Notes: a model not told the origin generated them from the sequence alone. A DNA stretch of 64,000 nucleotides from Eledone cirrhosa (GCA_964016885.1 OZ024765.1:20522001-20586000), one strand, 5' to 3'. Positions 34,026 through 54,760 are shown, counted from the stretch's first letter. A program made the numbers and translations.

Positions 34026-34807
34026 GCCATGAACGCCAGCACATCTATTTTGCTTGGAAACTGAAAGTAGGTTTATAAATATAAATTTTTTCTTATGTTC
34101 TTGTATCTGTTTCGTTGGCCTAATGGTAGGTGTTAGAGACTATGTAGACACTGATGTGGTGTTCAATCTCAGTCCGAATCTGTACTATATATTTTTAAAT
34201 TTAAATTTTTCTCTAGTAAAGTAAAAAATAAAATTATTATCTATAGACTTTGACTAAAATCGAAACCCAGAGCAGGTTCTCCACCGTCTCTAATACCTAC
34301 CATTAGGCCACGGAGACAGATATAAAAACAGTGTGAAAATTAATATTTATAAAGTTACTTTTTTATTTTTGTTTTATACTATAAAAACTATAATACGACA
34401 CACTGCCAGTGATCGAACCCCGGACCTGGACCTCCACCGGCTCTTATACTTACCACTAGGCTAAAGAGACGGTTACGGAAACTTATTGAAAATTGATATT
34501 TATAAACCTACTTTTTCATTACTAGAAAAAACCGGAAGTGGAGAAAATTGAAAAACATCTTCTTTTTCTTCCTCTGATTTTTTTTAATCCAAAATTTGGA
34601 TTTAAGTCAGAGACGAGTTATCGTTCGTGGCAAAAATCAGAGGAAGAAAAAGAAAAAGTTTTTCAATTTTCTCCACTTCCGGTTTTTTCTAGTATAGGTA
34701 AGTAAATATTAATTTTCAATGCATTTTTGTAACCGTCCCTGTGGCCTAATGGTAAGTGCTAGAGACGGTGGAGGTCCTGATTTAGGGTTCGATTTCCGTT
34801 AGGTTTT
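34026..34807. ncRNA. Four-unit tRNA-like cassette, array copy 8
   Basis: Near-identical to 1808-2589. Confidence 0.6.
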
Positions 34808-37800
34808 ATACTAATAACTGCGTATTTGTTGCTTTTATTAAGTAAGATTTGAACTAATAATGCTGTACTTTGTAGTAATGTCCCATATTATATTCAACAT
34901 ATTTTAAATAAAACTTTTTTTTTTTATAAAAGAAAGAACAAAAAACCTTATTGAAATTAAGAAATGAATTTTATTCAGTAAAGTTGTTTTTATTTTGTTT
35001 TCACTTCATTAACTGCTGAATACGTCTTTTGTTTTTGTTTTTGATTCTTTCTAACCATTGTTTACTGTGAATGGTGACTGCAACGAACCTGGATTATTAC
35101 CAAGTTTCACTGGATGATTGTATTATTTTGTTGTCAGTGGACATCTGGACATCTATCTAAATACCTGGAATAAACACAAGGTGTGTGTTTTACGTAACAT
35201 TTCATTTTAATGTCTGATGTTCCTGTATTTCACATTTAAAATGTAACCAAAAATAAACAAGACAGGGACGCTACATCAAAATAAACCACACAGACGAGGT
35301 ACGAATAATCTAAAATTAATTTTAACAAACTATAAACGATGTTTAAAGAGAGATGAACATTAAAATAGGATTTCAAACAAACACGTAAACACAAAGACAA
35401 TTACAGCCTCCATAATCTAATATCTGAAGATCAACATTTTTCACGATAGAAATAAAACTAAATATGTAAAGTTTAGTGGCCCCTGATTTACTTGCTTTTA
35501 ATTTCATTTTGATAATCTGTATTCTGTAGACATATATTTATGATTTTAATGATGAAATTTCCTCTTGTCTTTAAAAGATTATTACTTATAAAAATTATAA
35601 TAGTCACCTCCTCCTCTCGATTAATATGTAGCTTACCCACAGGGGTTCCTCAACTGGGCGGTTTCAACTGTTGGGTGGGCGATGAGCAGCTGAACAGAAA
35701 ATTGAGGGCCATTGGAAACTTTGGTGGCCGATATAGAATTTTGAGATTTAAGAAGGTATGCTACCCGAAAACCTATTCAAGGAATATATGCAAAGAACCT
35801 GAATAAAAATCAGGAAGCTAATTGGGAAAATTAAACCAGGAACAAACATTTACGAAACATATTTGGTATACTTTGGAATATTTACTATACAGGTGGCTGG
35901 TGGAACATCTTTTCATGTGAATGTGGGAAATGACGCCAAAATATTTGGCAACCCTTGGCCTACACCTTACTAAATGTTCTGGAGACAAGCCTCTTCGCTA
36001 TATATCATAGTTCTTCAATCCTTCATCTTCCACAGTTGGTGAAGTATTTCGATTTGATATGACGATCGCAGAGTTAGATTTAGGACGTGGTGGCGTTCAT
36101 GGGTTTCTTAGTGTTGTTACTAGAAAGGGTCGACTCTGTCTTTCACACTTCAGGTTTTTTCATGAATTAAATATCCATTTTCTTTCTGATCGGTCTAACA
36201 ATGATTTGAACCTACAATGACTCCGTCTGTAATAACGTTCTCTTATTTGAAATAATACATACCTAACTCCCGTGTCTGTGTGTGTGAAAAATATTCCAAC
36301 TTAAAGCGACGTGCCCGTAAATTGTTTAGCCTGATTCCTATATATAGATAATGTGTAATATTTGAACCTTCATGGAGGGTCTTTGCCGTAATTTCCCGTA
36401 ACTCCGACTAGAATTCATTATGTAGTTTTTTCGTCCGTTAAAAATAATGATTAAAACAGTTCTATATCCACAGTTATATACACCTCTTCATCACATATTA
36501 TATTATTTCCACCAATAACTACATTATATCCTTAAATATGACACCAAGACATATAATTTGTAAATAAAAGATAAAATATTAAAACCTCAATTTTTAAATA
36601 ATTTTACCCCACCTTTGTGTTCAGGTTAACCCATAATTTTATGATTTTGGAGCATATAACTTATCGTACCAGTCATGTACTGGGATCAATTTAACGGATT
36701 GGTTCCTCCCCGCAAATTACTTGACTTTTGCCTAAGTAAGACATACTCACAGAATGTATCGATGTACATGTATGAATGTATATATATATATATATATATA
36801 TTAGTATATTTTATGTTTACAATAAAAATAGACAAACAATTTAATGATAATATGAAATGAAATTATTATTATTTATTAATAATATTTTTATTGTTTTCAC
36901 TGCATTAACTTCTGAGTGTGACTTTGTTTTTCTTACTATTTTCTACTGTAAATGGCGGCTTAATTGGATTATTACTAAGGTTTACTGGATTGTGGTGTTT
37001 CTTTATTGTTTTATATTTCAATCAGTGGACATCAGGATAGCTTTCTATATACCTGGGATAAATGTAAAGAGTACTGACTTTCATCTGCAGTTCAATGGTG
37101 ATGTCTTCTTATATTTTCATTTACTTCTGCAATACTGTAGTCTTTTCATTATTTTAAATATTTCTATCATGTCACTCGTTTGATATATCTCCCCGAAAGA
37201 TATAGTTATTCAGAGCTTTACATTGGAATAGTGTACTACTATTTAAATATTAGTCCTTTAAATATATATTTCTATCATGTCCCCCCCACCCTCTTAGATT
37301 TATCTCCTCTAAATTTGCAATCCCTAAAGTTTAACATCTTTCTTCAGAAGACGATTTCTTAATAATTCTGGTGTTTTCTGTTTTGTTCTTTTCTGGATTC
37401 CTTCAATAGCTTCTCCGTATTTTCTGAAGTCGTCTGACCATGCCCCAAAACAATATTCTAGGTCGTATCACACATATCATTCAACTAGTGTTTTAGACCT
37501 CTCGACATTTAGCTAGGCAAAGGAATGTTTTATTATTCCTATCATCTGAATTCCTTTTTTTTCTTCAACATGTTTAGCCATCTTTAAAATCATATTCATA
37601 CATATTCACAATTCCTCGTGGAGGGCTATAAGAGACATGTATAAATATAGCTGCATATTACTACAAAATAACTTGAACCATATCGCGAAACATTTTGTAA
37701 AGTATCTCTGTAATTATTCTCATTTCGATTTTCTGTAGAATGTATTGACGTTTAAGATAGAGACAATTGCCCTTCTTCTAATAATCTCTTTGTCCATTCC

Positions 37801-39264
37801 ATGTTTAGTCTCACAAAATATTGTTAATGCAAGATTTTGCTCTAATGTAATAAATGTTACTTTTAAAAGACCGAAGTTCTCAATTTTCTTCTTTCTCTTG
37901 TATATTGATATCTAAAGGATGACAAATGTATGAATTATGTGATAGGGAGGAAAAAAGCCACGACCTTCTTCTCTCGTTACAGAAGGCTAACTGACAACGT
38001 CTTTAGCAGGAGTGACTAGTACTACTGCCTTTTATATACCGTGACAACTGGAAAGACGTGACAAATAAGGATACACTCTGCTCTCCTTATCAATATTGTC
38101 CGAGTCTGAGGACCTTTCCTCCCTGGTTAAGGAGTGAGATAAAATATTAGGGATCAATCTCTAGCAATAATTTCATTAAATCATATTTAACCAGAGGCTG
38201 TTATGTCGTGGTTGTTGCTATATTTTATAGTCGTGGTTTCAATGTTTAACAGGGGTTGTAGAATTAGCTTTATCTAATTATTATCAAACAAAACAGATTT
38301 ATATATTGTCGCCGTTGTACGTTAAAATCACATATATATTTATATACACACCAAGGATGGAGGGACGACGGAATTGAAAACCATTATTGCTGAGTACATC
38401 ACGGCAAGATCTAATACACACACACACACACTCCTGTATATATTTAATAATCAGCTATGACCATGAAGAAGGTCCCTGTAGATCATCTGGTTGTAGGATC
38501 TAATGAACCCGAAAGAAAGTGAAAATATATTTTATGAAAGCCCCAGAAGAATAAATGTAAACATTGACCCGATTATAGTAGAAATAACGTACCAAACCAG
38601 GATGCACTCCTCTGTCCCCTTCAACATTATCAGAGCTTCATTCCTCCCAATGTTATTGCTACTAGAAACGGACGACCTTGTCTTTCCTCACTCTGCGGTT
38701 TTATTAAAGTAAATCTGGATTTTGTTTATCATCGTTCTAGAGTTGATTTGAACCTACATTAACACCGTTGATACTACTGCTAGTTAACCTCTAATCTGTC
38801 ATACCTGTGTGTGGGTGTCTGTATGTTAACGATTCCAGCCTAGGTCGACCTACTTATTTGTCAAACCTGATCCCTATATAGATAAATACTATATGTAAGT
38901 GTACAATATTTGAACCTATAATGATGTGCTTTACAGTAATGCCATGTAACATCAACTAGATGTAACTATGTATATGTTTCTTTATTAAAATAATTAAAGT
39001 CACCTCTATATTCCTTACTAAAGATTGAACTCCTGACATCCCCTTACAATCTCAACTATGAAGTATTAAAACTTCTATTTATTATTTCTAACCTCACCTC
39101 TTTGTATTCTCGATGTAAATCCTGGCGAGATTAATTTTCAATTTTTATTTTTGGAGCAGATAAAACATAATACCAGTCAAATAATGGAATCAATTAAATC
39201 GATTGGCTTCACTTAAATTTCTGCACTTTTGCCTGAATATATATATATATATATATATATATTA

Positions 39265-39530: not shown

Positions 39531-39969
39531 ACAGAGAGGGAGAGATTAACCAGAAATATATTTTGATAATGGAAAAGGCTTTTTTTATTCAACAAGTCTT
39601 TAAATATTTTTGCAATGAAAAAAGGAAAAAAAATAAATAAATTTACGAAATGAGTATTATTCAGTAGTTTTATTTTTGTATATTTTTACTGCATTAACTG
39701 CGGCGTATGTGTTTTGTTTGTTTTTTCTTAGTATTGTCTGTTAATGGCGACTGCGGTGAAATTTGAAAAAAGTCACTCGAAGGTAAAGCCAATCATTGTC
39801 ACAATTTAATGTCTGAACTTCAATATTTTCATGATGTAATTAAAATTTCATAACTTGAATTTATTGAACTCCGATTTGATTTCTCATAAATGTTTTAATA
39901 ATGCATATTCTGCTTAGATATTTTCGATGTTGTACATTACGATTTTGTTGACATTATCTGATGTCTTTA

Positions 39970-40072
39970 AGCCGAGGTTAACTTTGCCTTTCATCCTTAC
40001 GGGGTCGATAAACTAAAATACCAGTAATGCACTGGGGTAATTGCTGGTCTTGTGCCAAAAGTAGAAACAATT
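39970..40072 (+). mobile_element. SINE body fragment
   Basis: GCCGAGGTTAACTTTGCCTTTCATCCTTACGGGGTCGATAAA...TACCAGTAATGCACTGGGG, near-identical to 61450-61550. Confidence 0.85.
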
Positions 40073-40309
40073 ATCTCTTATAAGCAGTATAATGGCGTGT
40101 TCCTCCTCTCATATTTACATTTTCTTCTGTAATACTGTATTGTCATTTATATTTTCAAGTCCATCTTTTTAAATATTTCTTTCGTGTACATATCTTGAAG
40201 AATTCTTCCATGTATTGATAAATGTTTCAGAAAAAATATTTTCTAGTAAAATGGTGATCCCTCCTCACTGTTGTGTTTCCTTCTGGAATACTGTACTTTC
40301 AAGTGCTTT

Positions 40310-40740
40310 CATTATTTTAAATATATATATATCTTCAGTTTGACTTATTTCCTCTATAATTGTATTTCCTACAGAGTAGTGTACTAGTATTTATATTTTC
40401 AAGGCTTTACATTTATCTGGAATAATGTAATATTTCATGACTTCCCTTAGCTTTCACTCCTCTAGTGTTGGGATTTCTTAATTATTCTGGTCTTTTATAT
40501 TTTTTCTTGTCGGGATTCCTTCAATATCTTCTGTTCTTTCGGAAGTCGTGAGACAAGGCCCCCCAAAACAATATTTTAAGTGGTAGCTCTCATTTCATTT
40601 ATCTAGAGTTTAAAGTTTACCTGACTTTACACAAGTTAAGAAATATTTTATTATTCCTATCATCTGACTTGCTGTGTTTTCTTTAACATAGTTAGCCACC
40701 TTTAAATTCAAATTCATACATATTCCCAATTCGTTGGGGG
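40310..40740 (-). pseudogene. CR1/L2 RT remnant, diverged paralogue of 340-815
   Basis: The minus strand reads NELGICMNLNLKVANYVKENTASQMIGIIKYF..HLKYC, matching the DLGV..D.NLK...H....A..MLG.IKR.F..HLEYC pattern. Confidence 0.7.
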
Positions 40741-40818
40741 AGGGGTATAAGAGGCGCCTCTTTATGTTACAATTCTTTGCCGAAACCTATTTTGTACATT
40801 CGATGTACGAACATAATT

Positions 40819-40858
<40 letters not shown>

Positions 40859-42494
40859 CATGCCATGAATAAATATAGCTGTGTATATATATATATCTGC
40901 ATATTAACTCCTCCCCGAAATATATTTTATATTTCTATCATGGCTCCCCCCCCTTTTTTTTTTTAAGTTACAATTCCTATGTTTTCCATCTTCACAAGAC
41001 ATTTCTTAATATTTCTGGTATTTTATTTTTGTTCTTTATTTTCCTTCAATAATTTCTGATTCCTTTCGGTGGTGTTTCACCTATTTATCTACAGTTATAA
41101 CATGTTTCTCTAAATAAAGGAAGGTTTTATTATATCTATCGTCCAACTTGCTGTGTTCGTCTTTAACATTCTTATCCACTTTAAAATTAAAGATTTACAC
41201 ATTTCCGTTTTTTTGTTGGGTGGAGTGAATAATAGGGGCATTGTAACCTCAAAATATCGATGTGGAAACCTGCTTGTATATTAAACACTCAACATACCAA
41301 TATGATAAATATATGTATGTTTACAAAAGCCATGTATAAGTATACCTGCACATTAACTCTTATCCAAACATTTGTTTCTCAAAATATGGTGAGACATATT
41401 CCGATAAATACTGCTACTTGTCTTTGTAAGTGTTTCTTTTCAATGAATTTTTCATTTCAGTTTTCAGCAGACAGTACTGGCGTTGAAGATGCAATAAATT
41501 GTCCTTATTATAATCACCAGCTTGTCTCAAATTCGTCTGTTTTTGTTACTTCGTCCATTTCACGTTTAGTGTTACAAACTCTGACGTTTCTACACCAATT
41601 TTCTATCGTTAATTCTTGATTGTATTTTAATGTAATAAAATATTTCTTTTCAAATATTTACTTTCTCACGTTAATTCTTTCTCTTGTGTGTTGTTATCTC
41701 ATGAATAAAAATATATATGATTTGCGAGAGAGGAAATATGACACGACCTTCCTTCATCGCTGCAGGAGTCCAACTGGCAATGAACTGACCATGAGAGGCA
41801 AGTACTCGACAACAGTGAACATCACGTGTTTGGTGTTAAGGAACACACTACCATTTATATACTGTGGTAAATGGAAAGCCGAGTCAAACCTTAACATTCT
41901 CAGAGACCCTTTTCTCCCTTATGAAGCAGTGAAATAAAGAATTGCAGGGGATTATTTTTAACAGGAGACTGTTATATCGTGGTTGTTGTTATAATATGTA
42001 GTTAGGGTTTCAATCTTTAGCTGGGATTGTAAAATTACTTTTATTAACTAAAAGCATCAAAAAAATATAGCGTCCTTGTACGTTCAAACTGAAGAGGCAT
42101 TATTGCCAACACATCACTGTAAGATCAAATCTAACACACACTCACATATATATATAGATTGAGGGATGACAGAACTGAAGAGGCATCATTGCCAATACAT
42201 CACTGTAGGATCAAATCTAACACACACACACACACACATGTATATATTTAGTAATCAGGTATGACCAATGAGGGTCGTTAATGGAGATCATCTGGTTGTG
42301 GGATCAAATCAACCCTGGCTAAATGAGATATCAAATCAAGATTTATTTTATCAAAGCCTCAGTAGTATAACAATCAACGTCAACCCTTTATAGTATTAAT
42401 TCGACTGAGAAAGGCATGAACACCACCACGTCAATTAAGCTTGGAAATAGAAAGTAGGTTTATAAATATTAATTTTCACCTTGTTTTTGTATCC

Positions 42495-42580
42495 GTCTCG
42501 GTGGCCTATTGTTAGGTGTTAGAGAGGACGAAGATCTTGGTCTCGAGTTCAATCTTGCCCAGGCACTACAAAGTATTTTT
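42495..42580 (+). ncRNA. Diverged tRNA-like Pol III unit (paralogue of unit 1)
   Basis: TATA at 42461, A box TGGCCTATTGT at 42502 (41 bp), B box GTTCAATC at 42547 (45 nt), long T run from 42576, upstream GGCATGAACACCACCACGTC box. Confidence 0.55.
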
Positions 42581-42601
42581 TTTTTTTTCATAAGAAAAAT
42601 G

Positions 42602-42685
42602 AAAAAAATAGCGGATTCTGGTCGAGATTGAACACCTGACTAGGATCACCACCGTCTCTAACACTTACCATTAAGCCACCGAGAC
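42602..42685 (-). ncRNA. Diverged tRNA-like Pol III unit (paralogue of unit 2) with full upstream region
   Basis: TATA at 42719, A box TGGCTTAATGG at 42678 (41 bp), B box GTTCAATC at 42633 (45 nt), T7 at 42608-42602, upstream GGCATGAACGCCGCCACATC box. Confidence 0.55.
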
Positions 42686-44054
42686 AACTACTCAAACAGA
42701 TTGAAAATTAATATTTATAAACCTACTTTCTATTGCAAAGCTTAATTGATGTGGCGGCGTTCATGCCTTTCGCAATATTATTAATACTACAAAAAGGGGT
42801 GAACATTAATTTTTATCCGTCTGGGACTTTCACGAAATATATTTTGATTTGGTTTCTCATTTCTCTAGGGTTTATTTGATCTTATATCCAGATGATCTGC
42901 AGTGTCGTTATTCAATGGTCATACATTTTTCTTCGGGTGAGGGTTGTGGAGACAGAGCCCCAAAACACTCCTTCCAGCGGGTCCTGTGTGTGTGTGTGTG
43001 TGTGTGTGTGTTAGATTTGATCCTAGGTGGCGTTCAAGACTTTCACAGTATTATTGGTACTAGAAAGGGTCGACCTTGTCTTTCATCCCTCTGGGGCTTC
43101 TATAAAGTAAATCTTGATTTTGTTTATTATCGCTCTAGGGTTGAGGTGAACTTCCATTGACTCCGTCTGTAGTAGTACTCAATAACTTCAAATCTGTCAT
43201 ACCTCATTCCCATGTGTGTTTGTCTGTGTGTGATAGATTCCAACCAAGTGTGATGTGTCGGTAAATTGTCAAACCTGATTCCTACATAGATAGATATGTG
43301 TACATATGTAAGATTTGAAACTACAATGATATGAGTTGAAGTAATGGCGCTATGTATATGTAGTGTTTCCTCCATTAAAAAATAATTAAAAGCAATTCTA
43401 TATCATCCCAGTGAAAGATTGAACTCCTGACAAAACCTTACGCTACATAACACCAAACCTACATTACATACTTAACCACTAAGCCACCGACATACATAGA
43501 GATTTGTATATCAAAATAAAGTATTGAAACGTCAATTTTTATTATTTATTTTTTATTTTTAAATAACATTAGACCACCTTTGTGTTTTCAGAGCAGATAC
43601 TACGGACATTAATTTTGAATTTTATGTTTTGAGAGCAGATAAAATAAAGTACCAGTTACATACTGGGATCAATTTAATACAGTCTTGTCTCCGGAAATTC
43701 CTGGATATGTGCTTATATGTTCGTGAATAAATATAAGTAAAAATTTATAAATACATGCCTGTATGTATTTATAAATACGTACGTGCGTGTGTGTGCGTGA
43801 AAGGTAAACAGAAATAACAACACAATCGGTACAGTATATGGATGGGATATATTAGATTAACGCTTGATATAGCAGGAAGAGAGTCTTAACGTTTCGGGCG
43901 CTTGTGCTTCCTCAGAGGGAAGAAGGAGAAATAAAATAGATTGAGGGGACGGGCGGGTTGGAATTGGAAAAAATGACTTTAGATAAAAATAACAGGTACA
44001 TTCATGTTGACATCTCTTGCAAAACTGTTGGTGCTAGCGTTAATACAAGTAAAG

Positions 44055-46136
44055 CATCATCATCATCATCAACGTTTAACGTCCGTGTTCCACGCTTGCA
44101 TGGGTTTGGACGGGGGTATTCCCACTTGAGGCAAGAGTGATTGTCTTGCTCGCATAGGACTGTCTGGCAGGTTTTCTACAGTTGGATGCCCTTCCTAACA
44201 CCAACCACATTTACAGTGTGGATCTGGGAGGTTTTTACCGTGTTGCCTACACGACCACATTACAGCGTGGACTGTGTGTTTTTTTGTCGTGACACCTACA
44301 CGATCTCATTTGTTTCGGCCTGGATGGCGCGGCACCAACATAACTTTACATAGAACGGGGTGGTGTGGATGGGGTGGGGGTGGTGGGACGGGGTGTATTT
44401 TGTTAGAGATGCCTACTGGCTGTAGTAGGTTTTACTATGTATTTAGGTAAGGCGGGTCTTCTCTATTACTGAGTACCGCCAAAGGTCTCGGTCCAGTGAC
44501 ATTGTCTTGGAGAGGTGTAAGTGTGTGAGGTCGGAGTTTATCAGCTCGTCCCAGGTTTTTCTAGGTCTGCCTATTCCGTGGCTACCGTCTATCTTTATTG
44601 CCCTGCACTTTGTTATACAGCTATCGACTTTCATGCGCATCACGTGTCCATACCAACGTAGCCTTCTCTCGAGTAAACAACATCTGATCCCTCTTATTTC
44701 TAATTTTTTCCTTAGTTCGTTTATGCTTTGCCGTTCACATATATTACTGTTACACATCCAGCGGAGCATGCAAGCTTCGTTCCTCTCTAGTCTGCGTATA
44801 TCCTCTGCACACAATGCCCAGGTCTCACTGCCATGCAACATTGCTGTTCGTATGCAGGCATCATACAACCTGCCTTTCATTTTTATGGAGAACCCTTTAG
44901 CAGCTAATAGTGGTATAAGCTCTCTGAACTTTTTCCAACCAGTTCTGACTCTAGCTACTGTACTTTCAGAGCACCCTCCCCCACTGCTGATTTTGTCGCC
45001 CAGGTAACGGAAGCTGTCAACTATTTCTATAGGACCCTCTGCGCAATTGAAAGAGCTAGTATTTTGTGGGCACTTGCTGCTACTTATTGCACCAGAACAC
45101 CGGCCACATGTAAAATCTGTTCTTAGTTAGCTTACCTGTGATCCCACTACACCTTTTATGCACCCATGGGACATAAAACGGAGTTTCTACCTACGCCTTT
45201 CCTACACACTGAGCATGGCCATTTCCCAGAAGGGACCGCCGCCTTATTTTCTTTCCTAGAAACTAGAACTTTAGTCTTAGCCAGGTTAATTTTTAGTCCT
45301 TTTGATTCTAGGCCGTGCTTCCATGTTTGGAATTTCTTCTCTAGCTCGGCCATTGATTCAGCTATGAGTGTCAGGTCGTCTGCGTATAGGAGTTCCCGTG
45401 GGCAGCCGGTCTTGAACTCCTGTTATAGCCTGAAGGGCAATAATAAATAGTAGGGGGCTGAGAACAGAGCCCTGATGGACGCCAACTTTTACGCTAAACT
45501 CTTCACTATATTCGTTGTTAATTCTAACCTTGCTGACTGTTTCTTTATACATGGCTTGTATAGCTCTCACAAGCCATTCGTCAACACCTAGTTTTCTAAG
45601 AGCCCACCAGATAATGGAACGGGGGACTCTGTCGAAGGCTTTCTCCAAGTCGACAAAAGCTAAGTAGAGGGGTTTACCTTTAGCTAGGTACTTCTCCTGT
45701 AGTTGTCGTACAATGAAAAGAGCGTCTGTGGTACTTTTGCCTGACACAAACCCGAACTGCATTTCATCTAGGTCAATTCTCTCTCTGATTAGTTGTGCTA
45801 TTACTTTTTCTGTGACCTTCATGACCTGGTCGATTAATTTAATGCCTCTATAGTTACTCCTATCTAGGGCATCTCCTTTACCCTTATAACAGTTAACGAT
45901 GATGCTGCTATGCCAGTCCTTCGGAACAACCCCATTCTGTACGACTTGGTTAACTATGCGGGTGACCATGGTGTGTCCCACCGTGCCAGATGCCTTCAGC
46001 ATCTCGGCAACTATTTCCGAAGGCCCAGCCGCCTTACCCGTCTTCATATCCTTGATTGCCTTACTTATTTTACTCCCCTCGACTAACACTGCTGGTCCCT
46101 CTATTGGGTCGATGTGGGGTAGACTGTCTTTCTCCC

Positions 46137-46138
<2 letters not shown>
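44055..46138 (-). mobile_element. 5'-truncated RTE-clade LINE (RT domain, PHD-like finger, C-terminus, 3' UTR, (ATG)n tail), frameshifted
   Basis: ORFs 45358-46089, 45156-45353 and 44443-44880 give NYRGIKL, QFGF, AFVDLEKAFDRV, GVHQGSVLSP, LLYADD (45375-45386, other frame), GLKINLAKTK, RRLRWYGHVMR and GRPRKTW. A (CAT)n run sits at 44055 on the + strand. Confidence 0.95.
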
Positions 46139-46191
<53 letters not shown>

Positions 46192-46408
46192 TGTAATAAA
46201 CAATACAATACAATTATTCCATTTACCAAAGGTTTCACGAAGACAGGCGACTTCAACAGAGTCGTTCGAAGTCGTTCATCAGAAAGGACAATTTAATATG
46301 GATGTATCTTTTCTACAGAAATATATATATATATATATATAATAAGTACACATATATATATATATATAATAAGTACATATATCTATATTAAATATATATA
46401 TATAATAA

Positions 46409-46453
<45 letters not shown>

Positions 46454-46457
46454 TATA

Positions 46458-46906
46458 TCATCATCATCACCATCGTTTAACGTCCGTGTTCCACGTTTGC
46501 ATGGGTTTGGGCGTGAGTTTTCCCACTTGAGGCAAGAGTGGTTGTCTTGCTCGCATAGGACTGTCTGGCGGGTTTTCTACAGCTGGATGCCCTTCCTAAC
46601 AACAAACACATTTATAGTGTGGACAGGGAGGTTTTTACCGTGTTACCTACACGGCCACATTACAGCGTGGACTGTGTGTTTTTTTGTCGTGACACCTACA
46701 CGACCTCATTTGTTTCGGCCTGGATGTTGTGGCACCAACATAACTTTACATTGAAAGGGGCGGTGTGGGTGGGACGGGGGTGTATTTTGTTAGAGATGCC
46801 TACTGACTGTAGTAGGTTTTACTTTGTATTTAGGTAAGGCGGGTCTTCTCTATTACTGAGTACCGCCAAAGGTCTCGGTCCAGTGACATTGTCTTGGAGA
46901 GGTGTA
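46458..46906 (-). mobile_element. RTE LINE 3' end, second copy
   Basis: Close match to 44055-44520 including the (CAT)n tail. Confidence 0.92.
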
Positions 46907-47029
46907 CTTATTTTCTGAAACTCTTTTTGTCAAAGTGCTAAACAGTACATAAACAAAAATATACATACAGACACATACATATATACACACATACATATAT
47001 ATACACGCAAACACATATATAAAATGTAA

Positions 47030-47300
47030 CCTCGTCGGTTTCAACAATGAGTGATTCTGTCGTTTGATCAATAGAACAGCCTGCTTGTTAACAAGTGGCT
47101 GAGCATGTGTACTCTAAACATAATTCAAAGGGAGATGCACTGTGACACAGTACATGGCAAGGCTGACCTTTTGAACGACAGAATTAATCCATCCCACAGG
47201 CTTCCAAACAGTCTGTTTACACAATTTCACTTGCGAGGCTCAAATCAAAGAGAAGCTAAGTTAACTGATGCTTGCCCAAGATGCCACACAGTGGAATTGA
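47030..47300 (-). mobile_element. Degenerate SINE fragment
   Basis: GATCAATAGAACAGCCTGC...CAAGTGGCTGAGCA...TGACACAG...CAAGGCTGACC is related to 39265-39530. Confidence 0.5.
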
Positions 47301-47314
47301 TGGCAGGAGAGAAA

Positions 47315-47635
47315 TGAAGCAAGCATGATCCAATGGATGTGCAATGTCAATGTGTGTGAACGACCAAGCATGGACGAGCTGAGAGAGAAACTGTGTATAA
47401 GAGGGATAAACTGTAGTGTGCAGGAGAGAAGACTACATTGGATGCGCAAGGAAGACGACTGCTGGGTGAAGAAGTGCCAAGTAATCCCAGTGGAAGGAAG
47501 ACGCAGTAGAGGAAGACCACAAAAAACATGGGCGGAGGTGGTGAGAGCTGACCTCAGATCCCTGAAGCTCACAGAGATGACAAAGGACTGTGACAAATGG
47601 AGATATGCTGTGCTGAAAATGACCTGTCCCGCCCT
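47315..47635 (+). mobile_element. RTE LINE ORF 3' fragment (different subfamily)
   Basis: MIQWMCNVNVCER..ELREKL.IRGI..VQERRLHW..GRRSRGRPQKTWAEVV..DL..DKWR is homologous to ORF 44443-44880. Confidence 0.88.
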
Positions 47636-47824
47636 TACTAGTTCCTTATTCCCATTTAACCTTAAAGGTGTACTAAAGCCACAAGCGTTTTTCTATCTAT
47701 GAATTATTAGTGGTGTGAACAGATGAATTAAAACCAAAGCTAATAAATATATCACCAAGGAGGATATCTAAGGATTTATAAAGTTTAAAGTCTGTCTCGA
47801 ACCTGGAGGTTCATCAAACTGGTG

Positions 47825-48060
47825 CCTGTCTAGGTTTCCCTGGCGTTAAGTGACTGAGAATACAAGACTCCTCCTTGGACAGGACACCAGTCCACCGCAG
47901 GGTTAAACCCCCAGCTATTGCTGGTACTGATTTTCAGCTGAGTATATTGGAGCAATGTGAAATGAAGTGTTTTGCTCAAGAACACAACAAACAACCCAGG
48001 AATCGAATCAACATATGAACGTAAGACCAACACACTTACCACTAGGTCTCGCACCTCCAC
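47825..48060 (-). mobile_element. tRNA-derived SINE, full length
   Basis: Minus-strand head GGAGGTGCGAGACCTAGTGGTAAG (A box) ... GATTCGATTCC (B box), then body TGTGTTCTTGAGCAAAACACTTCATTTCACATTGCTCC...GTGGACTGGTGTCCTGTCCAAGG. Confidence 0.85.
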
Positions 48061-49212
48061 TATCGAAGGATCTACACTTCATTAAATAATAAATTAGACT
48101 TATGCTTACGTCGCCGACATAATTATGGTCGGAAAGGACATTACTGAACATAAGGAATCTACAACTAAAGGAAGACAACAGCAACGGTCCCTCCTATCTG
48201 AAATATTAAGGAATCTACATAGGGCCCCGTTGGCCCATCTTCCTACCAAAAGAATTATTTTAACAGGCCTACCTCCTCGAGGGCCCAAGTAAGGGGCCTC
48301 ATAACTCAACTAGCACAGGGCCTCATTTGTCGTAAATCCGGAACTGACTTTCCATACAATTATATATATATATATATATAAGAAGAAATTAAAAGATGGT
48401 TTAAAAAGTTCCATGTATTTTATTATGCGCATTTCAAAACAAATATCATCCTGGGACGATATTTGCGTTCTCATCAGATAAAATAGGGAGACATGATATA
48501 ATGCTTAAAAAAAAACAAAAAACACTTGTGAACAAGGTAGTGTCTAATCAACATATGATAAATATGCTTTATTGTTCTACAATAAAACTCACCTCCCACA
48601 TATATATATAATGTGTGTGTATGTGTATGACCCCTAGCAAGCCAAACTACACTTACAACAGAACACACACGGCAAAAAGAAACATTACCTGTTAGAGACG
48701 CACGTCAAACAATTTGTTAGTGAAATACCGGTGTAACTATTTCAGTTTACCCTAGTTTTAAATCACACCCATTTATTAATTTATTTAGCGACATTTCAAT
48801 TAAAATTCATATATATTCCCAATTCCTAGGGGAGGGGTATAAAAGTCATATTTTCAATTCAAACTTCGCTACCAAAGCCAGGTTGTGTTTTATACATTCG
48901 ATGTGCGAATATGCATGGTAGAAATAGCAGCCAAAGACCAGAAAATTACAGAACGTACTACACACACATATATATGTATATATTTCAGTACATATGTATA
49001 TATGGAATTATGTAATAAAATGAAGATGTATGAATAGAACTGTCTCTCTTATTTATTATACTAACACTTCGATTGAAACCTTACTTAGAAAATCATAAGG
49101 AATACACATCGTAAAGTGCTTTACTATATACTTTATATATATATATATATATATATTTCGTTTCTGAATTTGTTTAGCAAGATTCTTTATCTGAAATCGT
49201 GTGTTGAAACCG

Positions 49213-49727
49213 ATATTGTTATACTTTGGGAGGGTCATGTTGCCAATAAGAAACACACGCACCAGTTGCTTTCACTTCAATTTAATTTATTAAATATTTA
49301 TAAATTTACAAATTTATAAATTTCTGGTTGGTTGGTTGGTTCCACAACCAGATAGTTGTTTATATATATATAGTCATAGTTCTTTCGTCACACACTCTGT
49401 GACCTCTTCAGTGACTGGGGATTTCTTTCTTCGTTTCTGTGCCTTTCCTTTCTTCTATCCTACGCCATTTTCTGGCGTAGGATAGAAGAAAGGAAAGGCA
49501 CAGAAACGAAGAAAGAAATCCCCAGTCACTGAAGAGGTCACAGAGTGTGTGACGAAAGAACTATGACTATATATATATAAACAACTATCTGGTTGTGGAA
49601 CCAACCAACCAACCAGAAATTTATAAATTTGTAAATTTATAAATATTTAATAAATTAAATTGAAGTGAAAGCAACTGGTGCGTGTGTTTCTTATTGGCAA
49701 CATGACCCTCCCAAAGTATAACAATAT
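49213..49727. repeat. Perfect palindrome: 255 bp arms, 5 nt loop (TTTTC, 49468-49472)
   Basis: 49213-49467 is the reverse complement of 49473-49727 with no mismatch seen by eye. Confidence 0.96.
49524..49568 (+). ncRNA. Minimal type I hammerhead ribozyme-like motif (mirror copy on - strand at 49372-49416)
   Basis: AGTCA-CTGAAGA-G-GTCACA-gagtg-TGTGAC-GAAA-G-aa-C-TA-TGACT: stem I AGTCA/TGACT, core CUGAAGA and GAAA, 6 bp stem II, 2 bp stem III, NUH = CUA. There is one extra G before stem II. Confidence 0.6.
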
Positions 49728-49793
49728 ATATATATAAATGTATGTATATATATATATTGTATATCTGCTCGTATATATACGTCTATGTTCCCT

Positions 49794-50156
49794 TGACTGC
49801 TATTTCTAGTGCTAAAAATAAAACCGAAGTGGACAAGATGGAAAAGGTTAGCTAAAATTCAGCCCCAACTTTTTAAACAATAGTTTATTTTATGTAAACA
49901 AACCGAGAATTTTTCGCAAGAAAAATAACTCTAGTCTTACTTAAATCCAAAAATTTAGACAAAAATTTTGCGGGTGTGCAGTTTATATAAACCTTCTTAT
50001 TTGGTCTTGTTTGTTGGCATTTGACTGCTATTTCTAGCATATATTAATAGACACTTAGAAATAGCAGCCAAAAATCAGCGAAAAACTGTTTAGAAAACAA
50101 GAGAAAGAAGGACATACACACACACATATATATATATATCTATGTGTATATATATA

Positions 50157-50188
<32 letters not shown>

Positions 50189-50508
50189 CACATATCCATA
50201 AATATATATACACACCTGTGTGTGTACTTCTGATGTTTTCAGTTTTCGCTGTTATTTCTAAAATGTCCATACATGCTAGAAATAGCAGTCAAATACCAGC
50301 AAATACGACCAAACAAACTGCACACCCGCAAAATTTTTGTGTCGATTTTTGCCATTAAGTAAGACAAGAGTTATCTTTCTTGGCAAAAACTTTTCTATTG
50401 TTTAAAAACTTTTGCCTGATTTTAAGCCAAAGTTTTTTAATGGCTGCCACTTCCGGTTTTTGTTGTGCGTCTACAGGAGAGCAACAAACCTGCTAGAAAT
50501 AGCAGTCA
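49794..50508. mobile_element. Foldback/MITE-like element with long imperfect inverted arms around a TA/CA microsatellite
   Basis: TGACTGCTATTTCTAG / CTAGAAATAGCAGTCA at the ends and internally; ACAAAAATTTTGCGGGTGTGCAGTTT (~49960) mirrored by AAACTGCACACCCGCAAAATTTTTGT (~50315). Confidence 0.7.
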
Positions 50509-50616
50509 TAGCAACACACTGACATATATTTATCTATGAGGGATTCTCAAGGTGGGGTGCACGCCCCACAGGGGACAATTTGAAAGTGATATAATACGAC
50601 CAAACTTCCAGATACA

Positions 50617-50892
50617 CTTCGTATACACATCTTATCGTGTATCTGGCAGCACCTATGAGAAGTTTGTTTACATTTTGGAGTTTATTTTGATCATCGCTGC
50701 ATCGCAGCTTTGTTTAAATAAAGGGTTTCTACTTTATATTACAGTCATAAAAGTTTAACTTCGTCTACACATGTTATCGTGTCTCTGGTAGCACCTACGG
50801 GCTGTTTGTTTACACTTTGAAGTTTGTTTTGATCATCGCTGCATCGCAGCTTTGTTTAAATAAAGGATTTCTACTTTATATTACAGTAATAA
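50617..50892 (+). repeat. ~140 bp tandem duplication (2 copies)
   Basis: TACACAT.TTATCGTGT.TCTGG.AGCACCTA...GATCATCGCTGCATCGCAGCTTTGTTTAAATAAAGG.TTTCTACTTTATATTACAGT occurs twice. Confidence 0.9.
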
Positions 50893-51266
50893 CACTTTTA
50901 CAAGACTCTGTTTTTTTTATATTAAAGAGGAACATAAACATATTTTAAATGTTGATATATATTTATTTATTTATGTCCTTCTTTCTGTTGTTTACTACCC
51001 TCTAAACTCAGCAATTCTAGCACACACACACACACACTATATATATATTTATATTGGGGTTATAATTAAAGAGCCTAAGACTAAAAGATATATATATAGA
51101 TGTCGAAACGGCAGGAGCTCAGCCGTCAGGGTCCTGAATATTTTCATATATATATATGTGTGTGTGTGTTCTGCGACATTTATAGTTACATAAATAAGCA
51201 TCTAATTATTTGAATAACAAAATTTGAGGTTTAAATACTTTATTTTTTACCAATAACATTAAGAAA

Positions 51267-51420
51267 GGCATGAACAACACCACATGTTAATTACTTCAAT
51301 ATTGAAAGTAGGTTTATAAATATTAAATTCACCAGATTCTTATAGCCTTCATGGTGGTTTTGTGGGAGATACCAGAGATGGTGGAGGTCCTGGTTTGGGG
51401 TTCAATCCTGGTCACGAGAT
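51267..51420 (+). ncRNA. Solo diverged tRNA-like Pol III unit with upstream box and TATA (A box decayed)
   Basis: GGCATGAACAACACCACATG, 17 bp, GAAAGTAGGTTTATAAATA; decayed A box at 51355; AGAGATGGTGGAGGTCCTGG; B box GGTTCAATCC at 51400 (45 nt). No nearby T run. Confidence 0.5.
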
Positions 51421-51795
51421 ACACATAGGGATTGATAAAGTAGCAGTCAAATACTAGGGGTCAATTCTCACTCTCTATCCTTCTCTGGTAGAAATCTGTT
51501 TTATTCAGACCTGGAGATGTTGTTTTTTTCTAGACAGAAAGAGAGACTTTTGTTATGTACTAAAACGTTAATTATTTTCACTGGACTTTTAATTCCTTTT
51601 TCTACTCTTTAGATTGAATAAACCTTAACATTTTACGTCTTCAATTATATTTACCGTAACTCATGTTAGTCTTTACAGTCAAGGATCTGTTTTTATTACA
51701 TCTATTTCAACTCCAAGGTGTGGTCGAGAAAGTGTATCCCCAAAATAAAGTGTCCAGCTAAGGAGTTCCGTAGGAAATGTTAAAAGGATTTAGTA

Positions 51796-52383
51796 CAGGG
51801 GTTCTCAACCATTTTTGTGTCATTGGCCCCAGTTTCACATGGAAAATTTTTCCACTGTACACCTGTTATTTGCATATCTCCTTTGAATATATATTTTGAA
51901 ATACCTTCTTAATACTCCAAAATCTTATATCGCCCACCTGTCTGGTAAATATTCAAAAGCAAACCAAACATTTTTGGTAAAAGTTTGTTACTGGTTCTTT
52001 ATTCCAACTTAGCCTCCTGCTATTTTTTTTATACAGGTTCTTTGCATATCTCCTTTGAATATTTGTTTTGGAGTAGCATATATTGAAATACCTTCTAAAC
52101 CCTTTAGCACTTAAACCAGCCATATCCTGCCAGAATTCTATCACCTCTTTCTGTTCAAACCAGCTGTAACTGTTCTCAAAATATAGAATATCAAAATCTC
52201 ATAGATTCTATATCATGAGATATGTGAGATAAAGCCTTTACCATGAAAATACAATAGTATATATAGAGTAAAGTAAATACCAAAGGGTTAATAATACTCA
52301 AAATCCTATATCACCTACCATTTTATCTTAAATCGGTCCTCGCCCCACCCAACACTTGAAATCACTCAGGTTAGGAAACCATG
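51796..52383. mobile_element. hAT-type MITE with 8 bp target-site duplication
   Basis: TIRs CAGGGGTTCTCAACC / GGTTAGGAAACCATG; flanks ATTTAGTA (51788-51795) and GTTTAGTA (52384-52391). Confidence 0.85.
52100..52287. mobile_element. piggyBac-like MITE nested in the hAT MITE
   Basis: (TAAA)CCCTTTAG ... CCAAAGGG(TTAA). The array copies of the hAT MITE show the empty site TACCTTCTTAAATCTC. Confidence 0.75.
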
Positions 52384-52554
52384 GTTTAGTAACTCCAGGT
52401 GTTTTTTTAATTTGTTTCACTTAAAGTAAAATAAAAACCTGTGATGTAAACATATGAATTAAAGCCAAAACTAATAAATATATCACCAAGAGGAATATCT
52501 AAAGATTTCCAAAGTGTAAAGTCAGCTCGAGCCTGGAGACTCATCAAGCAGGTG

Positions 52555-53895
52555 CTTGTCCCGGTAGTGTGAAGTGACTGAGAGTACATGACTTCCCCTG
52601 GACATGATGTCAGTCCATCGTAGGGTTAAACCCCCACCTATTGCTGGTACTCATTTTCAACTGTCTATATTGGAACAATGTGAAATGAAGTGTTTTGCTC
52701 AAGAACACAATACACAAGATTTATGGCAAAACTCTGCAATGAGTATGAAGGGTGATCTTTTTAACTGGTTGAAGTCCTTCATCTCAGTCGAAGAGAGGTA
52801 GTCACGGTTCTTAGAGAGCATTCTTCACCCTATGTGATGTCATCTGGTGTACCACAGGGATCTGTTCTTGGTCCTCTTTTGTTTGTTGCATATATTAATG
52901 CCATAGATGCCAACTTAAAGAATGCCACAGTACTGAAATATGCAGATGGCATCAAGCTGTACCTTGAGATAAAAAAGGACAGATCCTGAACACTATCTTT
53001 CCTGCAATCCTGGATACAATGCAGCAATGGATCACGGACTGGCAACTCAAGCTGGCTGTGGACAAATGTACCACCATGCATTTTGGGAGTAAAAACCCAG
53101 CGTCCACATACTCCCTCCACAACACTAATATCAAGAAGTCTTCTTGTGAACGTGACCTGAGCATTACTGTCAGCAGCGATTTGCGTTGGACAAAGCACGT
53201 CAAATATTCAAGAAGGCCGAGCGTTTCTTGGCATCACTCAGCAAGACCTTTGGCAGCTTCTCTCCAGCTATCTATTTAAAGCTGTATATAGCTATGGTGC
53301 GGCCACACTGAGAATTTGCATCTTGCTCAGAACATCGACCTCCTGGAAGCCGTTCAGAGATGTGCAACCAAATGAATACCCTTTGGCATCTATCATACTC
53401 TGAACGCCTTGCTTCCCTGGGCATGGATACATTGAAGCTCCGCCTGGCAACAGACTTGGTAAAGACCCACAAAATTATTAACCATCTTGCCAACAACAAC
53501 CCTGAGCACCTTTTCGAATTCCATGTGTCTAACACACATGGGCATGCCCACAAAGTCAGAAAACAGCACAGCTCCCATGACATTTGGAAACATTTTTTTA
53601 CGCTCAGAGTTGCTGAAGCATGGAACAAACTACCTGCATCAGTTGTTAGCTGCTGAGACACAGTATCATTTATAACCTCCATGCTTCCTTAAATTCACTA
53701 ACACTACACCTGATATACTCCCCTCCATACACATGCTCACATGTATATCATGTCTCATACATGCACCTTTGATGAGTGGTAGTTCACCTGAGCACTGTAC
53801 ACAATAATTTCATTATATTTTACAACCCAGTCTAGGAATCGAATCCACATATGATCGTAAGTCCAACACACTTTCTACTAGGCCACGCACCTTCA
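52555..53895 (-). mobile_element. tRNA-derived SINE (paralogue of 47825-48060) split by a CR1 insertion
   Basis: 52555-52710 matches the SINE body and 53822-53895 matches the SINE head (AGGAATCGAATC...CTAGGCCACGCACC). Confidence 0.85.
52711..53821 (+). mobile_element. 5'-truncated, decayed CR1/L2-clade LINE
   Basis: NWLKSFIS..SGVPQGSVLGPLLFVAYIN..KYADGIKLY..WQLKLAVDKCTTMHFG..ERDLSITVSSDLRWTKHV..LSYSERLASLGMDTL..HGHAHKV..FFTLRVAEAWNKLP, with several frameshifts and stops. Confidence 0.93.
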
Positions 53896-54516
53896 TTATC
53901 GAAGGATCTACCCTTCATTAAAGAATAAATTAGACTTATGCTTACATCGCCGACAACAGGAAGACAACAGAAACGGTCCCTCTATCTGAAATATTTAGGA
54001 ATCTACACAGGGCCCTGTTGGCCAAGAGGGTACATCTTCCTACCAAAAGAATTATTTTAACAGGCCTACCTCCTCAAGGGCCCAAGGAAGTGGCTTTACA
54101 ACTTAACTAGCACAGGGCCTCATTTGTCCTAAATCCGGAACCTGACTTTACAGATAATTATATATATATATATATAGTGTGTGTATGTAGATGTATGACC
54201 CCTAGCAAGCCAAACTACAGTTTACACCCCAACACGGACTGCAATTGGAAACGTTACCTGTTATAGATGTCAAATAATTTGTTAGTGAAATACCGGTGTA
54301 ACACGAAATATGTTACCAGTGGATCTATTTCACTTTACCCTAGCTTCAACTCATACCCTGGTAACTTATAACTGTGTTAAAGTTAGATTATTAGGACCCA
54401 TAAATACAGGATGGTTACGGCTGGAATGTCATTGCTTGGTCAGTTATTACAACTGTATCCCACTTCATGGCCAATACATTTGTTAGAAATAGCAGTTCAA
54501 TCTGAAGAACATCACA

Positions 54517-54750
54517 GCAGATCATCTGGTTGTAGGATCAATTCAACCCTGGAGGGATGAGAAATTAAGTCAAGGTATATTTTATCAAAGAACAGGAAAA
54601 ATAAAAATGAAAGTCAACCCCTTTGAAGTATTAATGACATTGGGAAAGCCATGAACCTCACTACGTCCATTAAGCTTCAAAATAAAAAGTAGGTTCATAT
54701 TTATTAATTCCCAGTGTGTTTTTGTGGCTGTAGGTATTGGAGATGGTTAA
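54517..54750 (+). pseudogene. Decayed paralogue of the upstream block, TATA region and 5' part of a tRNA-like unit
   Basis: GATCATCTGGTTGTAGGATC..AACCC..GAAAGCCATGAACCTCACTACGTC, 17 bp, AAAAGTAGGTTCATATTTA..TAGGTATTGGAGATGGT; truncated by the 48 bp minisatellite. Confidence 0.6.
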
Positions 54751-54760
54751 TGACGTAGTA

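Follow-up and report, generated by a model that had tools for sequence, protein, structure and literature searches.

Why do tRNA-like sequences keep their control elements at fixed distances while the bases in between diverge? The question is raised by the window analysed here, a 64,000-nt stretch of Eledone cirrhosa DNA that carries 35 copies of a tRNA-like sequence, most of them within a tandem array. A first-pass annotation had described their promoter geometry as free of indels across deeply diverged paralogues and had suggested selection on spacing. On balance, the copies are probably paralogous tRNA-like genes, duplicated together with their flanks, that would use a composite Pol III promoter to make a structured, non-tRNA RNA of ~80-95 bases.

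Gene copies in the array and beyond it

A scan with the A-box pattern gave 36 matches, of which the one at 43576 was left out as having neither B box nor TATA, leaving 35 genes (Table 1); gathering copies via their A box favours indel-free survivors. There are 32 genes in the array, four (g1-g4) in each unit, and the units are 96-99% identical in long self-matches. Specifically, g2 and g1 are convergent, and the divergent pair g3/g4 has an inverted-repeat spacer in common. Within the array the upstream box (GSCATGAAC) belongs to g1 only and is absent from g2, g3 and g4 (24 of 32 genes); it is replaced by ACTTCCGG at -76 from the A box in g3 and at -67 in g4. An orphan box at 3837-3845(-) is present in 7 of the 8 units. 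The array ends 10 bp short of the next upstream box.

An old collinear paralogue of most of the unit lies beyond the array and served as the yardstick for neutral indel density. Gene 42678 converges on gene 42502, mirroring g2 on g1, and the distant relative at 43394..43495(-) lacks both canonical TATA and upstream box. Judged by their sequence, two further copies are likely dead: copy 51355 has a T4 within its A box and the next T4 not before +144, and copy 54648 has a 17-nt deletion, which removes the A box, plus a 5-nt deletion, both within the gene. Copy 51355 looks dead, yet its spacing is perfect.

The copies have hundreds of bases of flank in common and therefore spread by DNA duplication. 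Within the window they do not look like SINE insertions, having T-run ends and flanks that are common rather than unrelated. Three copies of the window's young SINE match the upstream flank at 42266..42412 (E 0.002-0.036).

Table 1. Coordinates of the array, the genes and the related copies in the window
Feature	Position	Strand	Details
Tandem array	1..38587	.	units of ~4.6 kb; 8 gene-bearing units of 4542-4698 bp
g1 of unit 1	1808..1978	+	box 1808-1816, N11 to 1827, RAAAGTAGGTT 1845-1855, TATA 1856-1863, putative start 1885, A box 1898-1908, B box 1942-1952, T5 1974-1978
g2	2005..2144	-	TATA 2126-2133, A box 2082-2092; G53 changed to T in B box; no upstream box
g3	2166..2297	-	RAAAGTAGGTT and TATA, A box 2235-2245, B box 2191-2201
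Inverted-repeat spacer	2304..2474	.	common to g3/g4; contains both ACTTCCGG sites
g4	2475..2589	+	altered TATA 2483-2490, A box 2524-2534, B box 2568-2578, first T4 2586
Orphan upstream flank	3826..3989	-	stops exactly at box+N11, with neither TATA nor gene following
Old collinear paralogue of most of the 4.6-kb unit	39605..43777	+	~75% identity of aligned bases
Common upstream flank	42266..42412	+	model positions 80-123 match core of young SINE, antisense
Upstream box GGCATGAAC + N11	42413..42432	+	last bases CACGTC; spans roughly -76 to -57 relative to putative start
RAAAGTAGGTT and TATAAATA	42450..42468	+	RAAAGTAGGTT 42450-42460, then directly TATAAATA 42461-42468, at -28 from putative start
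Gene 42502	42489..42588	+	putative start 42489, A box 42502-42512 (2 mismatches), B box 42546-42556, terminator T13 42576-42588
Gene 42678, full promoter	42602..42767	-	box 42759-42767, TATA 42712-42719, putative start 42691, A box 42668-42678, B box 42624-42634, T7 42602-42608
Second orphan flank	43026..43188	-	worn box (43032)
Distant relative	43394..43495	-	A box from 43486; A-to-B 62 nt; 19.1 bits, rough E 1.5e-4
Copy 51355	51267..51430	+	promoter spacing intact; sole B box with C61 among 35 genes
Copy 54648	54499..54760	+	flank and box-to-RAAAGTAGGTT spacing intact; TATA worn; truncated by 48-bp satellite

Promoter layout and probable Pol III class

Relative to a conserved RTA start-like site, taken as the putative start, the A box lies at +14 and the B box at +58, and TATAAATA lies at -28 (TTTATAAA from -30), preceded by the conserved RAAAGTAGGTT. 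A T-run follows 62-82 nt past the A box and 10-30 nt past the B box in 6 of 7 lineages, the exception being 51355. The A box fits TRGYnnARBGG without mismatch in 33 of the 35 genes, and 34 of the 35 B boxes lack C61 (tRNA numbering). Identity is 0.79 in the A box, 0.78 in the B box and 0.42 in the 3′ part.

In addition, a subset of the genes has a 20-bp upstream element at about -76/-57. The boxes reported earlier are present at 1808(+), 42413(+), 42759-42767(-), 51267(+) and 54648(+), two approximate positions having been off by one, and exactly 17 bp separate N11 from RAAAGTAGGTT in all five box-bearing lineages, as had been claimed. The intervening bases have indeed diverged like the flanks: mean pairwise identity is 0.66 for N11 and 0.62 for N17 (flanks 0.75), and it is 0.93 for the box and 0.96 for RAAAGTAGGTT among the five box copies. 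A TATA-to-A distance of 40-42 was likewise confirmed, and the A-to-B distance of 45 nt, previously given for six copies, holds in 35 of 35 genes and equals standard tRNA numbering. The term indel-free is too strong, given 1-bp TATA-to-A indels in g1, 51355 and one g2 array copy, the two deletions in 54648, the box missing from most array genes and the A-to-B distance of 62 in the distant copy.

By its sequence features, the layout is that of a composite type-2 promoter (7SL, vault, 4.5S) and not type 3. The type 3 frame adopted in the first-pass annotation is a misfit, because these genes conserve internal A and B boxes and type 3 promoters, those of U6, 7SK, Y, RPR and MRP genes, are described in excerpts of PMC7279448 as wholly upstream of the gene. 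Some type-2 genes combine a -31/-24 box with an element near -50, a CRE or C/EBP site (PMC7279448, in part), and have their A and B boxes at about +12 and +54 or slightly beyond; the features found here are internal A and B boxes at comparable positions, a TATA-like box at the -31/-24 position, and a T-run terminator after the B box. Pol III would transcribe the putative genes from this promoter and, by analogy with 7SL, vault and 4.5S genes, TFIIIC would bind A and B and set TFIIIB on TATA. Because C61 is missing from nearly every B box, a true TATA together with the upstream element may offset weaker TFIIIC binding. An optional part of the promoter, the upstream element would recruit a putative activator; 24 of the 32 array genes do without the box, which also persists in orphan copies.

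As to the nature of this element, the earlier CRE/ATF reading drew on one copy. CACGTCA is present in copy 42413 as described; of the 5 copies, one has a CRE within 2 mismatches at the box position and two have the ACGT core. The match, at ~-63, is ~10 bp further upstream than the corresponding elements in 4.5S, 7SL, EBER and vault genes, which an excerpted table places at -51/-44 to -54/-47 (PMC7279448, Table 1).

The box could instead be the species' PSE, within a SNAPc- and Brf2-dependent promoter whose A and B boxes are secondary as in tRNA-Sec, a gene classed as type 3 (PMC7279448, in part). We consider this unlikely, even though the spacing between a 20-bp element and a canonical TATA is constant across the five box-bearing lineages, the B box is weakened, and a canonical TATA is, according to the same excerpts (PMC7279448), rare among animal type-2 genes and typical of type 3. 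The A boxes are near perfect, TATA is kept without the box in three of the four genes of each unit, and the indel deficit between box and TATA is borderline (see below). Furthermore, -76/-57 is upstream of the -50/-60 at which PMC7279448, as excerpted, places the PSE, and the distal octamer expected of type 3 genes near -210/-240 has no counterpart within 300 bp common to the 7 promoters (0 exact; one-mismatch matches at unrelated places in 3). An Rfam scan for snRNA genes in the window found none, and a literature search found no paper on a mollusc PSE.

Possible length constraint and predicted RNA fold

Neighbouring paralogous DNA is indel-rich, in agreement with the first-pass annotation: the 1865 nt aligned contain 58 gaps (3.1 per 100 nt), and 199 nt of near flank contain 4. 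Across all lineages, the RNA body has 0 indels versus 8.1-12.7 expected (P 1e-5 to 0.007), or 2 versus 9.6-15.1 when the broken copy 54648 is counted (P 1e-4 to 0.04), and the A-B region has 0 versus 4.7-7.3 (P 0.001-0.03). The deficit is borderline from box to TATA (0 versus 2.6-4.1, P 0.018-0.10), and there is no depletion from TATA to start (2 versus 2.9-4.5, P 0.17-0.44). In one equal-age pair, promoter plus gene has 2 gaps in 251 nt versus 7.8 expected, with P 0.02 by length (0.014-0.021) and 0.05 by substitutions (0.039-0.056), the ranges covering three gap settings; box-to-TATA alone has 0 gaps in 54 nt (P 0.16-0.27). These comparisons support purifying selection on length, now or earlier, as had been suggested, with its peak inside the putatively transcribed A-B region and not between box and TATA. 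A substitution slowdown in the body, sought in the pair test, was not found (identity 0.74-0.76; flanks 0.75).

Gene conversion and survivor bias are live rivals for the fixed spacing. Between units, g2-g4 are more variable than the spacer (8.8% versus 2.5%, P 6e-6); among 20 minor alleles, 10 carry the base found in a paralogue, with 5.7 expected (P 0.027), a pattern suggestive of gene conversion. The g1 RNA body has 0 of 72 variable columns across the 8 units, versus 19 of 216 in g2-g4 (P 0.005), an invariance that is not significant against the spacer (P 0.42). We regard g1 as the likeliest candidate for the working copy, because it is the sole array gene with the upstream element and with a unit-invariant body.

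The copies do not look like functional tRNA genes. The four-stem cloverleaf fails (cells paired: D-arm 93%, acceptor 59%, anticodon arm 37%, T arm 37%), U33 and C61 each occur in 1 of 7 lineages, in different ones, and ARAGORN and Rfam gave no tRNA call in the window, with no tRNA among Rfam matches at E up to 10. The RNA matched no Rfam family.

The copies nevertheless have a fold in common. Its consensus energy is -13.1 and its SCI 0.65, versus 0.18-0.27 in neutral simulations in which a real copy evolved without pairing constraint; the observed SCI was reached in 0 of 150 runs for every one of 7 starting copies. A 5′ stem and A-box hairpin are common to 6 of 6 copies folded singly. In an alternative fold, a long hairpin spans the B box, with 89% pairing and 6 two-sided changes; the two folds are mutually exclusive and score alike. 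Compared with neutral decay from a fully paired start, the common fold has more paired cells (0.89 versus 0.78-0.80, P about 0.01). Two-sided changes in a freshly predicted fold are not above the null (P 0.07-0.17), and single-sequence folding z-scores are weak (-0.04 to -1.5). Body length would be held jointly by the common RNA fold and the A-B geometry.

These results bear on a decay scenario, in which the copies would be worn-out tRNA genes or SINE heads in a satellite-like array, their spacing reflecting past function, conversion and recognition bias, with no RNA function today. Such decay, which we rate as somewhat unlikely, would agree with body identity equal to flank identity, the conversion signal, the excess variation of g2-g4, the loss of C61 and of the cloverleaf, and indel-bearing copies (54648, 43486), as well as with a squid genome containing thousands of tRNA-derived loci (PMC6962438). 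It is opposed by an indel deficit that remains after counting 54648, by TATA and RAAAGTAGGTT identities far above those of the flanks, and by a common fold that differs from the cloverleaf and exceeds neutral decay; conversion within the array also leaves the match to 42502, 42678 and 51355 unexplained.

A role as DNA is quite improbable: arrayed TFIIIC/TFIIIB sites, paired convergently and divergently, could form a chromatin boundary or Pol III hub, or the cluster could supply a simple SINE with source genes. tDNA clusters can serve as insulators, the genes are densely clustered, and promoter elements are conserved with body substitutions at the flank rate. Conserved T-run ends and the common fold point instead to a transcript, and no window copy has the tail, SINE body or unrelated flanks expected of retroposition.

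Very unlikely, finally, is a protostome vault RNA overlooked by Rfam on account of how little vault RNAs have in common beyond A and B boxes. Three scans gave no Rfam Vault match at E up to 10, although the model may miss distant members, homology detection being poor outside deuterostomes (PMC7058938, in part). The promoter is similarly composite (A/B boxes, TATA-like box, upstream CRE-like element; excerpts of PMC7058938), and some copies show weak GTA/TAC end pairing. However, 5′/3′ end pairing, predicted for vault RNAs of all species according to excerpts of PMC7058938, does not exceed that of shuffles in 6 of 6 terminator-bearing copies (P 0.11-0.92), the central part is fixed in length here and variable in vault RNAs, and the copy number is at least 35.

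A candidate small-RNA family and its known counterparts

The best reading of these data is an uncatalogued, lineage-specific family of tRNA-derived small RNAs that would resemble rodent 4.5SH/4.5SI and ape snaR. By analogy with 4.5SI/4.5SH, BC1 and snaR, the product may work via a putative protein partner. More tentatively, the family could be cephalopod-specific, an independent counterpart of rodent 4.5S/BC1 and ape snaR, selected for its fold, amplified in the 4.6-kb array and equipped with two alternative upstream modules, the GSCATGAAC element or the ACTTCCGG site, which could make expression tissue-specific and perhaps neural; in addition, the box may offer a first look at a cephalopod PSE.

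The lineage-specific Pol III RNAs 4.5SH, 4.5SI, BC1, BC200 and snaR are all mammalian, and a clear invertebrate case with a 4-5-kb tandem layout, if true, would mean that the route from tRNA to structured RNA to array recurs. Natural promoter variants stand side by side here (box, ACTTCCGG, TATA only, broken), making promoter logic directly testable, and guide RNAs could be expressed in Eledone cirrhosa from a native Pol III promoter taken from this locus. If the family is silent, it is an instructive example of apparent constraint arising from conversion and survivor bias.

Among known systems, cytosolic tRNA genes have in common with these genes the A box consensus, the A-to-B distance and a well-paired D-arm, but differ in the other arms, which are poorly paired here, and in U33 and C61. 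The young tRNA-headed SINE in the window, by its motifs probably akin to octopus tRNA-derived SINEs, shares B-box-like letters with the genes, whereas the genes end at a T-run with neither tail nor SINE body, their A and B boxes lie closer together, and their flanks are common. Vault, 7SL and EBER genes likewise combine internal A/B boxes with an external TATA-like box and activator site (PMC7058938 and PMC7279448, in part), but their CRE is conserved at -50 to -54, and the copies here showed no end pairing of the vault type. The snaR genes of African great apes encode young, small, structured Pol III RNAs that arose mostly by segmental or tandem duplication with flanks in common (PMC3045588, in part), as here; snaR derives from a 7SL/Alu monomer, while the Eledone family retains a relic of the D-arm and spaces its A and B boxes as tRNA genes do.

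The 4.5SH and 4.5SI RNAs, 94-98 nt long, are Pol III products confined to particular lineages; their genes combine internal A/B boxes with an element near -50 and a -31/-24 box that is required, and 4.5SH genes number hundreds of copies, one per 4-5-kb tandem unit (PMC7279448, in part); 4.5SI is tRNA-derived (PMC10137851, in part). Compared by description rather than by sequence, the likeness covers internal A/B boxes, a box at the TATA position, an upstream element, tandem units and tRNA origin. In contrast to both, the Eledone genes have a canonical TATA and an upstream element ~10 bp further out that is mostly non-CRE, and, unlike 4.5SH, the Eledone unit holds four divergent candidate genes in opposed pairs.

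Gene layout and surroundings of the array

The DNA of the window is AT-rich. It contains microsatellites, pieces of LINEs, and a SINE with a tRNA head, whose letters appear octopus-like. Each of the eight gene-bearing units of the tandem array carries four tRNA-like elements, arranged as a convergent pair, g1(+) and g2(−), and a divergent pair, g3(−) and g4(+), with a 170-bp inverted repeat at the divergence centre of the latter. The old paralogue downstream of the array holds a gene pair, 42502(+) and 42678(−), that corresponds to g1 and g2, and two further gene copies lie at 51355 and 54648. The worn B-box-like sites match the 3′ part of the distant copy with weak E-values, and it may be that every cassette formerly included another gene upstream. 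The palindrome, which is near-perfect and almost loopless, reflects either a genuine duplication forming a hairpin or an error of assembly.

Features of the array and its surroundings
Feature	Position	Description
Tandem array	1–38587	~4.6-kb units, 96–99% identity (long self-matches)
Worn B-box-like sites	1354–1373, 38148–38168, 39017–39037, 42001–42027	~500 bp upstream of genes
g3–g4 inverted repeat	2304–2474	ACTTCCGG on both arms
Insertion in unit 3	12337–12441	~100 bp, duplicating the g4 B box and trailer ~600 bp further on
Old paralogue	39605–43777	collinear with most of an array unit
Young tRNA-headed SINE copies	39971–40074, 56142–56335, 61434–61723	89–95% alike
Distant copy	43394–43495	
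LINE fragments with reverse transcriptase	44059–46188, 62072–63325	PF00078 relatives, 52–76% identity among the matches listed
Palindrome	49213–49727	515 bp, 99% self-match
Minisatellite	54761–55490	48 bp, 15 copies; starts exactly where copy 54648 breaks off
45-bp tandem array	56292–56874	13 copies; arose by amplification of the A-box end of the young SINE next to it
Minisatellite	59861–61245	42 bp, 33 copies

Promoter spacing and promoter type

The first-pass annotation had described an indel-free promoter spacing, and this observation is borne out in part. Specifically, the upstream box, N11, 17 bp and RAAAGTAGGTT keep a common register across all five box-bearing lineages, all 35 genes have an A-to-B distance of 45 nt (one of 36 pattern matches, 43576, is without B box or TATA and was left out of the gene count), and the TATA-to-A distance is 40–42. 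The intervening bases have diverged as described (0.66 for N11 and 0.62 for the 17 bp, versus 0.93 for the box and 0.96 for RAAAGTAGGTT). The term 'indel-free' does not hold: three 1-bp changes lie between TATA and the A box, copy 54648 carries two deletions, 24 of the 32 array genes lack the box, orphan boxes have nothing behind them, and the distant copy has an A-to-B distance of 62. Furthermore, copy 51355, whose A box contains T4 and which has no terminator close by, and copy 54648, which has lost its A box, both keep the box-to-TATA spacing, indicating that this spacing is no marker of living genes.

The box-less promoters of g3 and g4 contain ACTTCCGG, presumably an ETS-type motif, at two different distances, and the inverted repeat between the two genes is a possible two-way promoter module. 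Because homology between the upstream DNA of g3/g4 and the box region is unsupported (P 0.08–0.94), their altered spacing may reflect replacement rather than an indel.

A conserved RTA site that precedes the A box by 13 nt was taken as the probable start. Counted from it, TATAAATA is at −28, the upstream element lies around −76/−57, and the A and B boxes are at +14 and +58. Of the 35 genes, 33 have an A box that fits TRGYnnARBGG with zero mismatches and 34 have a B box without C61; a T-run follows in six of seven lineages, giving a length of 79–94 nt. According to PMC7279448 and PMC7058938, the 7SL, vault, EBER and 4.5S genes have the same layout, while type-3 genes, with a promoter described there as entirely upstream (PMC7279448), differ from the present genes in that the latter have internal A and B boxes. 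The register of box and TATA speaks for a PSE-driven promoter and the near-perfect A boxes speak against it; we regard it as unlikely. The proposed CRE reading of the box applies to one of five copies, which is within two mismatches; the CRE-like site exceeds the distance of known sites by roughly one turn of the helix. No octamer common to the promoters was found.

The core of the young SINE has a weak antisense match to the upstream flank common to the tRNA-like genes. That the box might be an antisense SINE's B box is unsupported, as the match stops ~27 bp short of the box and pairwise scores beat all 300 shuffles in only one of eight flanks.

Gene anatomy and spacings are established from the sequence, as are an indel deficit in the transcribed body, a shared non-cloverleaf fold, and spread by DNA duplication. 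We lean towards a composite-promoter small-RNA gene, in which a family of probable tRNA origin would use TFIIIC on the A and B boxes to position TFIIIB at a true TATA, the weakness of the B box would be offset by this TATA together with an optional activator site upstream, and Pol III would make an 80–95-nt RNA acting via a protein partner. This mechanism and the alternatives weighed here overlap in part.

Indels and variation among copies

For the one pair whose members are equally old, there are 58 gaps in 1865 aligned nt of flank and 2 in 251 of promoter plus genes, an indel deficit with P ~0.02 by length and 0.04–0.06 by substitutions (three gap settings); box-to-TATA alone has 0 gaps in 54 (P 0.16–0.27). 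An all-lineage test, with three flank-rate estimates scaled to tree lengths, gave 0 indels versus 8.1–12.7 expected for the RNA body (P 1e-5 to 0.007), 0 versus 4.7–7.3 for A to B (P 0.001–0.03), 0 versus 2.6–4.1 for box to TATA (P 0.018–0.10), and 2 versus 2.9–4.5 for TATA to start (P 0.17–0.44). With 54648 counted, the body has 2 versus 9.6–15.1 expected (P 1e-4 to 0.04), the added branch being assumed (lengths 0.3 and 0.5 in two rows of the test). Length is therefore held mainly in the transcribed part. The original interpretation is upheld in part: held length is supported, and the type-3 layout does not fit as proposed. We consider a DNA-level or SINE-source role quite unlikely.

The A box was used to find the genes, which biases the set towards survivors; apart from the distant one, no additional complete copy came up in profile searches. 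Mutation is raised at Pol III genes according to PMC6130373, which could lengthen the tree of gene copies. This worry is limited because, in the single pair for which it was measured, the body is as similar as the flanks, with no substitution slowdown. The same equality would suit copies that are neutral relics, but the indel deficit of the body would not; we regard that reading as somewhat unlikely.

Between units, variable columns number 0 of 72 in g1, the only array gene with the box, 19 of 216 in g2–g4, and 91 of 3705 in the spacer; g1 differs from g2–g4 (P 0.005) and not from the spacer (P 0.42). Minor alleles in g2–g4 equal the base of a paralogue in 10 of 20 cases versus 5.7 expected (P 0.027), and conversion between paralogues is therefore likely. 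Errors of assembly or mutation linked to transcription may also contribute to this variation.

RNA folds and comparison with known systems

Searches of the whole window with Rfam at gathering, and with ARAGORN, gave no matches. Rfam hits at E up to 10 in three stretches were only hairpin look-alikes from inverted repeats, far below gathering, and were rejected; ARAGORN at a lowered threshold gave 210 candidates, those listed mostly having long false introns, and these were not used. The standard cloverleaf was also rejected, as it fails apart from the D arm; U33 and C61 are each present in one of seven lineages.

Two folds were obtained. In the first, a 5′ stem pairs the leader with GAGACGG around an A-box hairpin, and this is seen in the minimum-energy fold of six of six copies folded. 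The second, a long hairpin that covers the B box, has 89% of its cells paired and shows six two-sided changes. The seven lineages fail to choose between them. For each of seven starting copies, none of 150 simulated runs attained the real SCI of 0.65 (null means 0.18–0.27); the fold was predicted afresh for every simulated alignment, and site rates were smoothed. These nulls cover only ancestors with pairing equal to that of the best present-day copies (g2 and 51355, each 100% paired in one or both folds). They supersede an earlier leaf-started null, which understates pairing. A column shuffle of the long-hairpin fold gave 0 of 500; since the fold had been derived from those very copies, this result was set aside in favour of tree simulations. 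Single-copy folding z-scores are weak, and re-predicted folds do not contain more two-sided changes than the null (P 0.07–0.17). Vault RNA would share the promoter layout, but vault-type end pairing is not above shuffles, and this identity is very improbable.

In the membership tests, the genes did not qualify as tRNA genes, type-3 genes, vault RNAs, or SINEs. A squid genome is reported to contain ~17,000 tRNA-derived loci, left uncharacterised there (PMC6962438). A search of titles and abstract starts, outside subscription papers and most supplements, found no such cephalopod family, which is weak evidence of novelty. The closest descriptions are those of the rodent 4.5SH and 4.5SI genes, which make RNAs of 94–98 nt from A and B boxes plus a −31/−24 box, with 4.5SH in 4–5-kb tandem units (PMC7279448), and of the ape snaR genes (PMC3045588); the tRNA-like genes here would resemble both in their working without being members of either.
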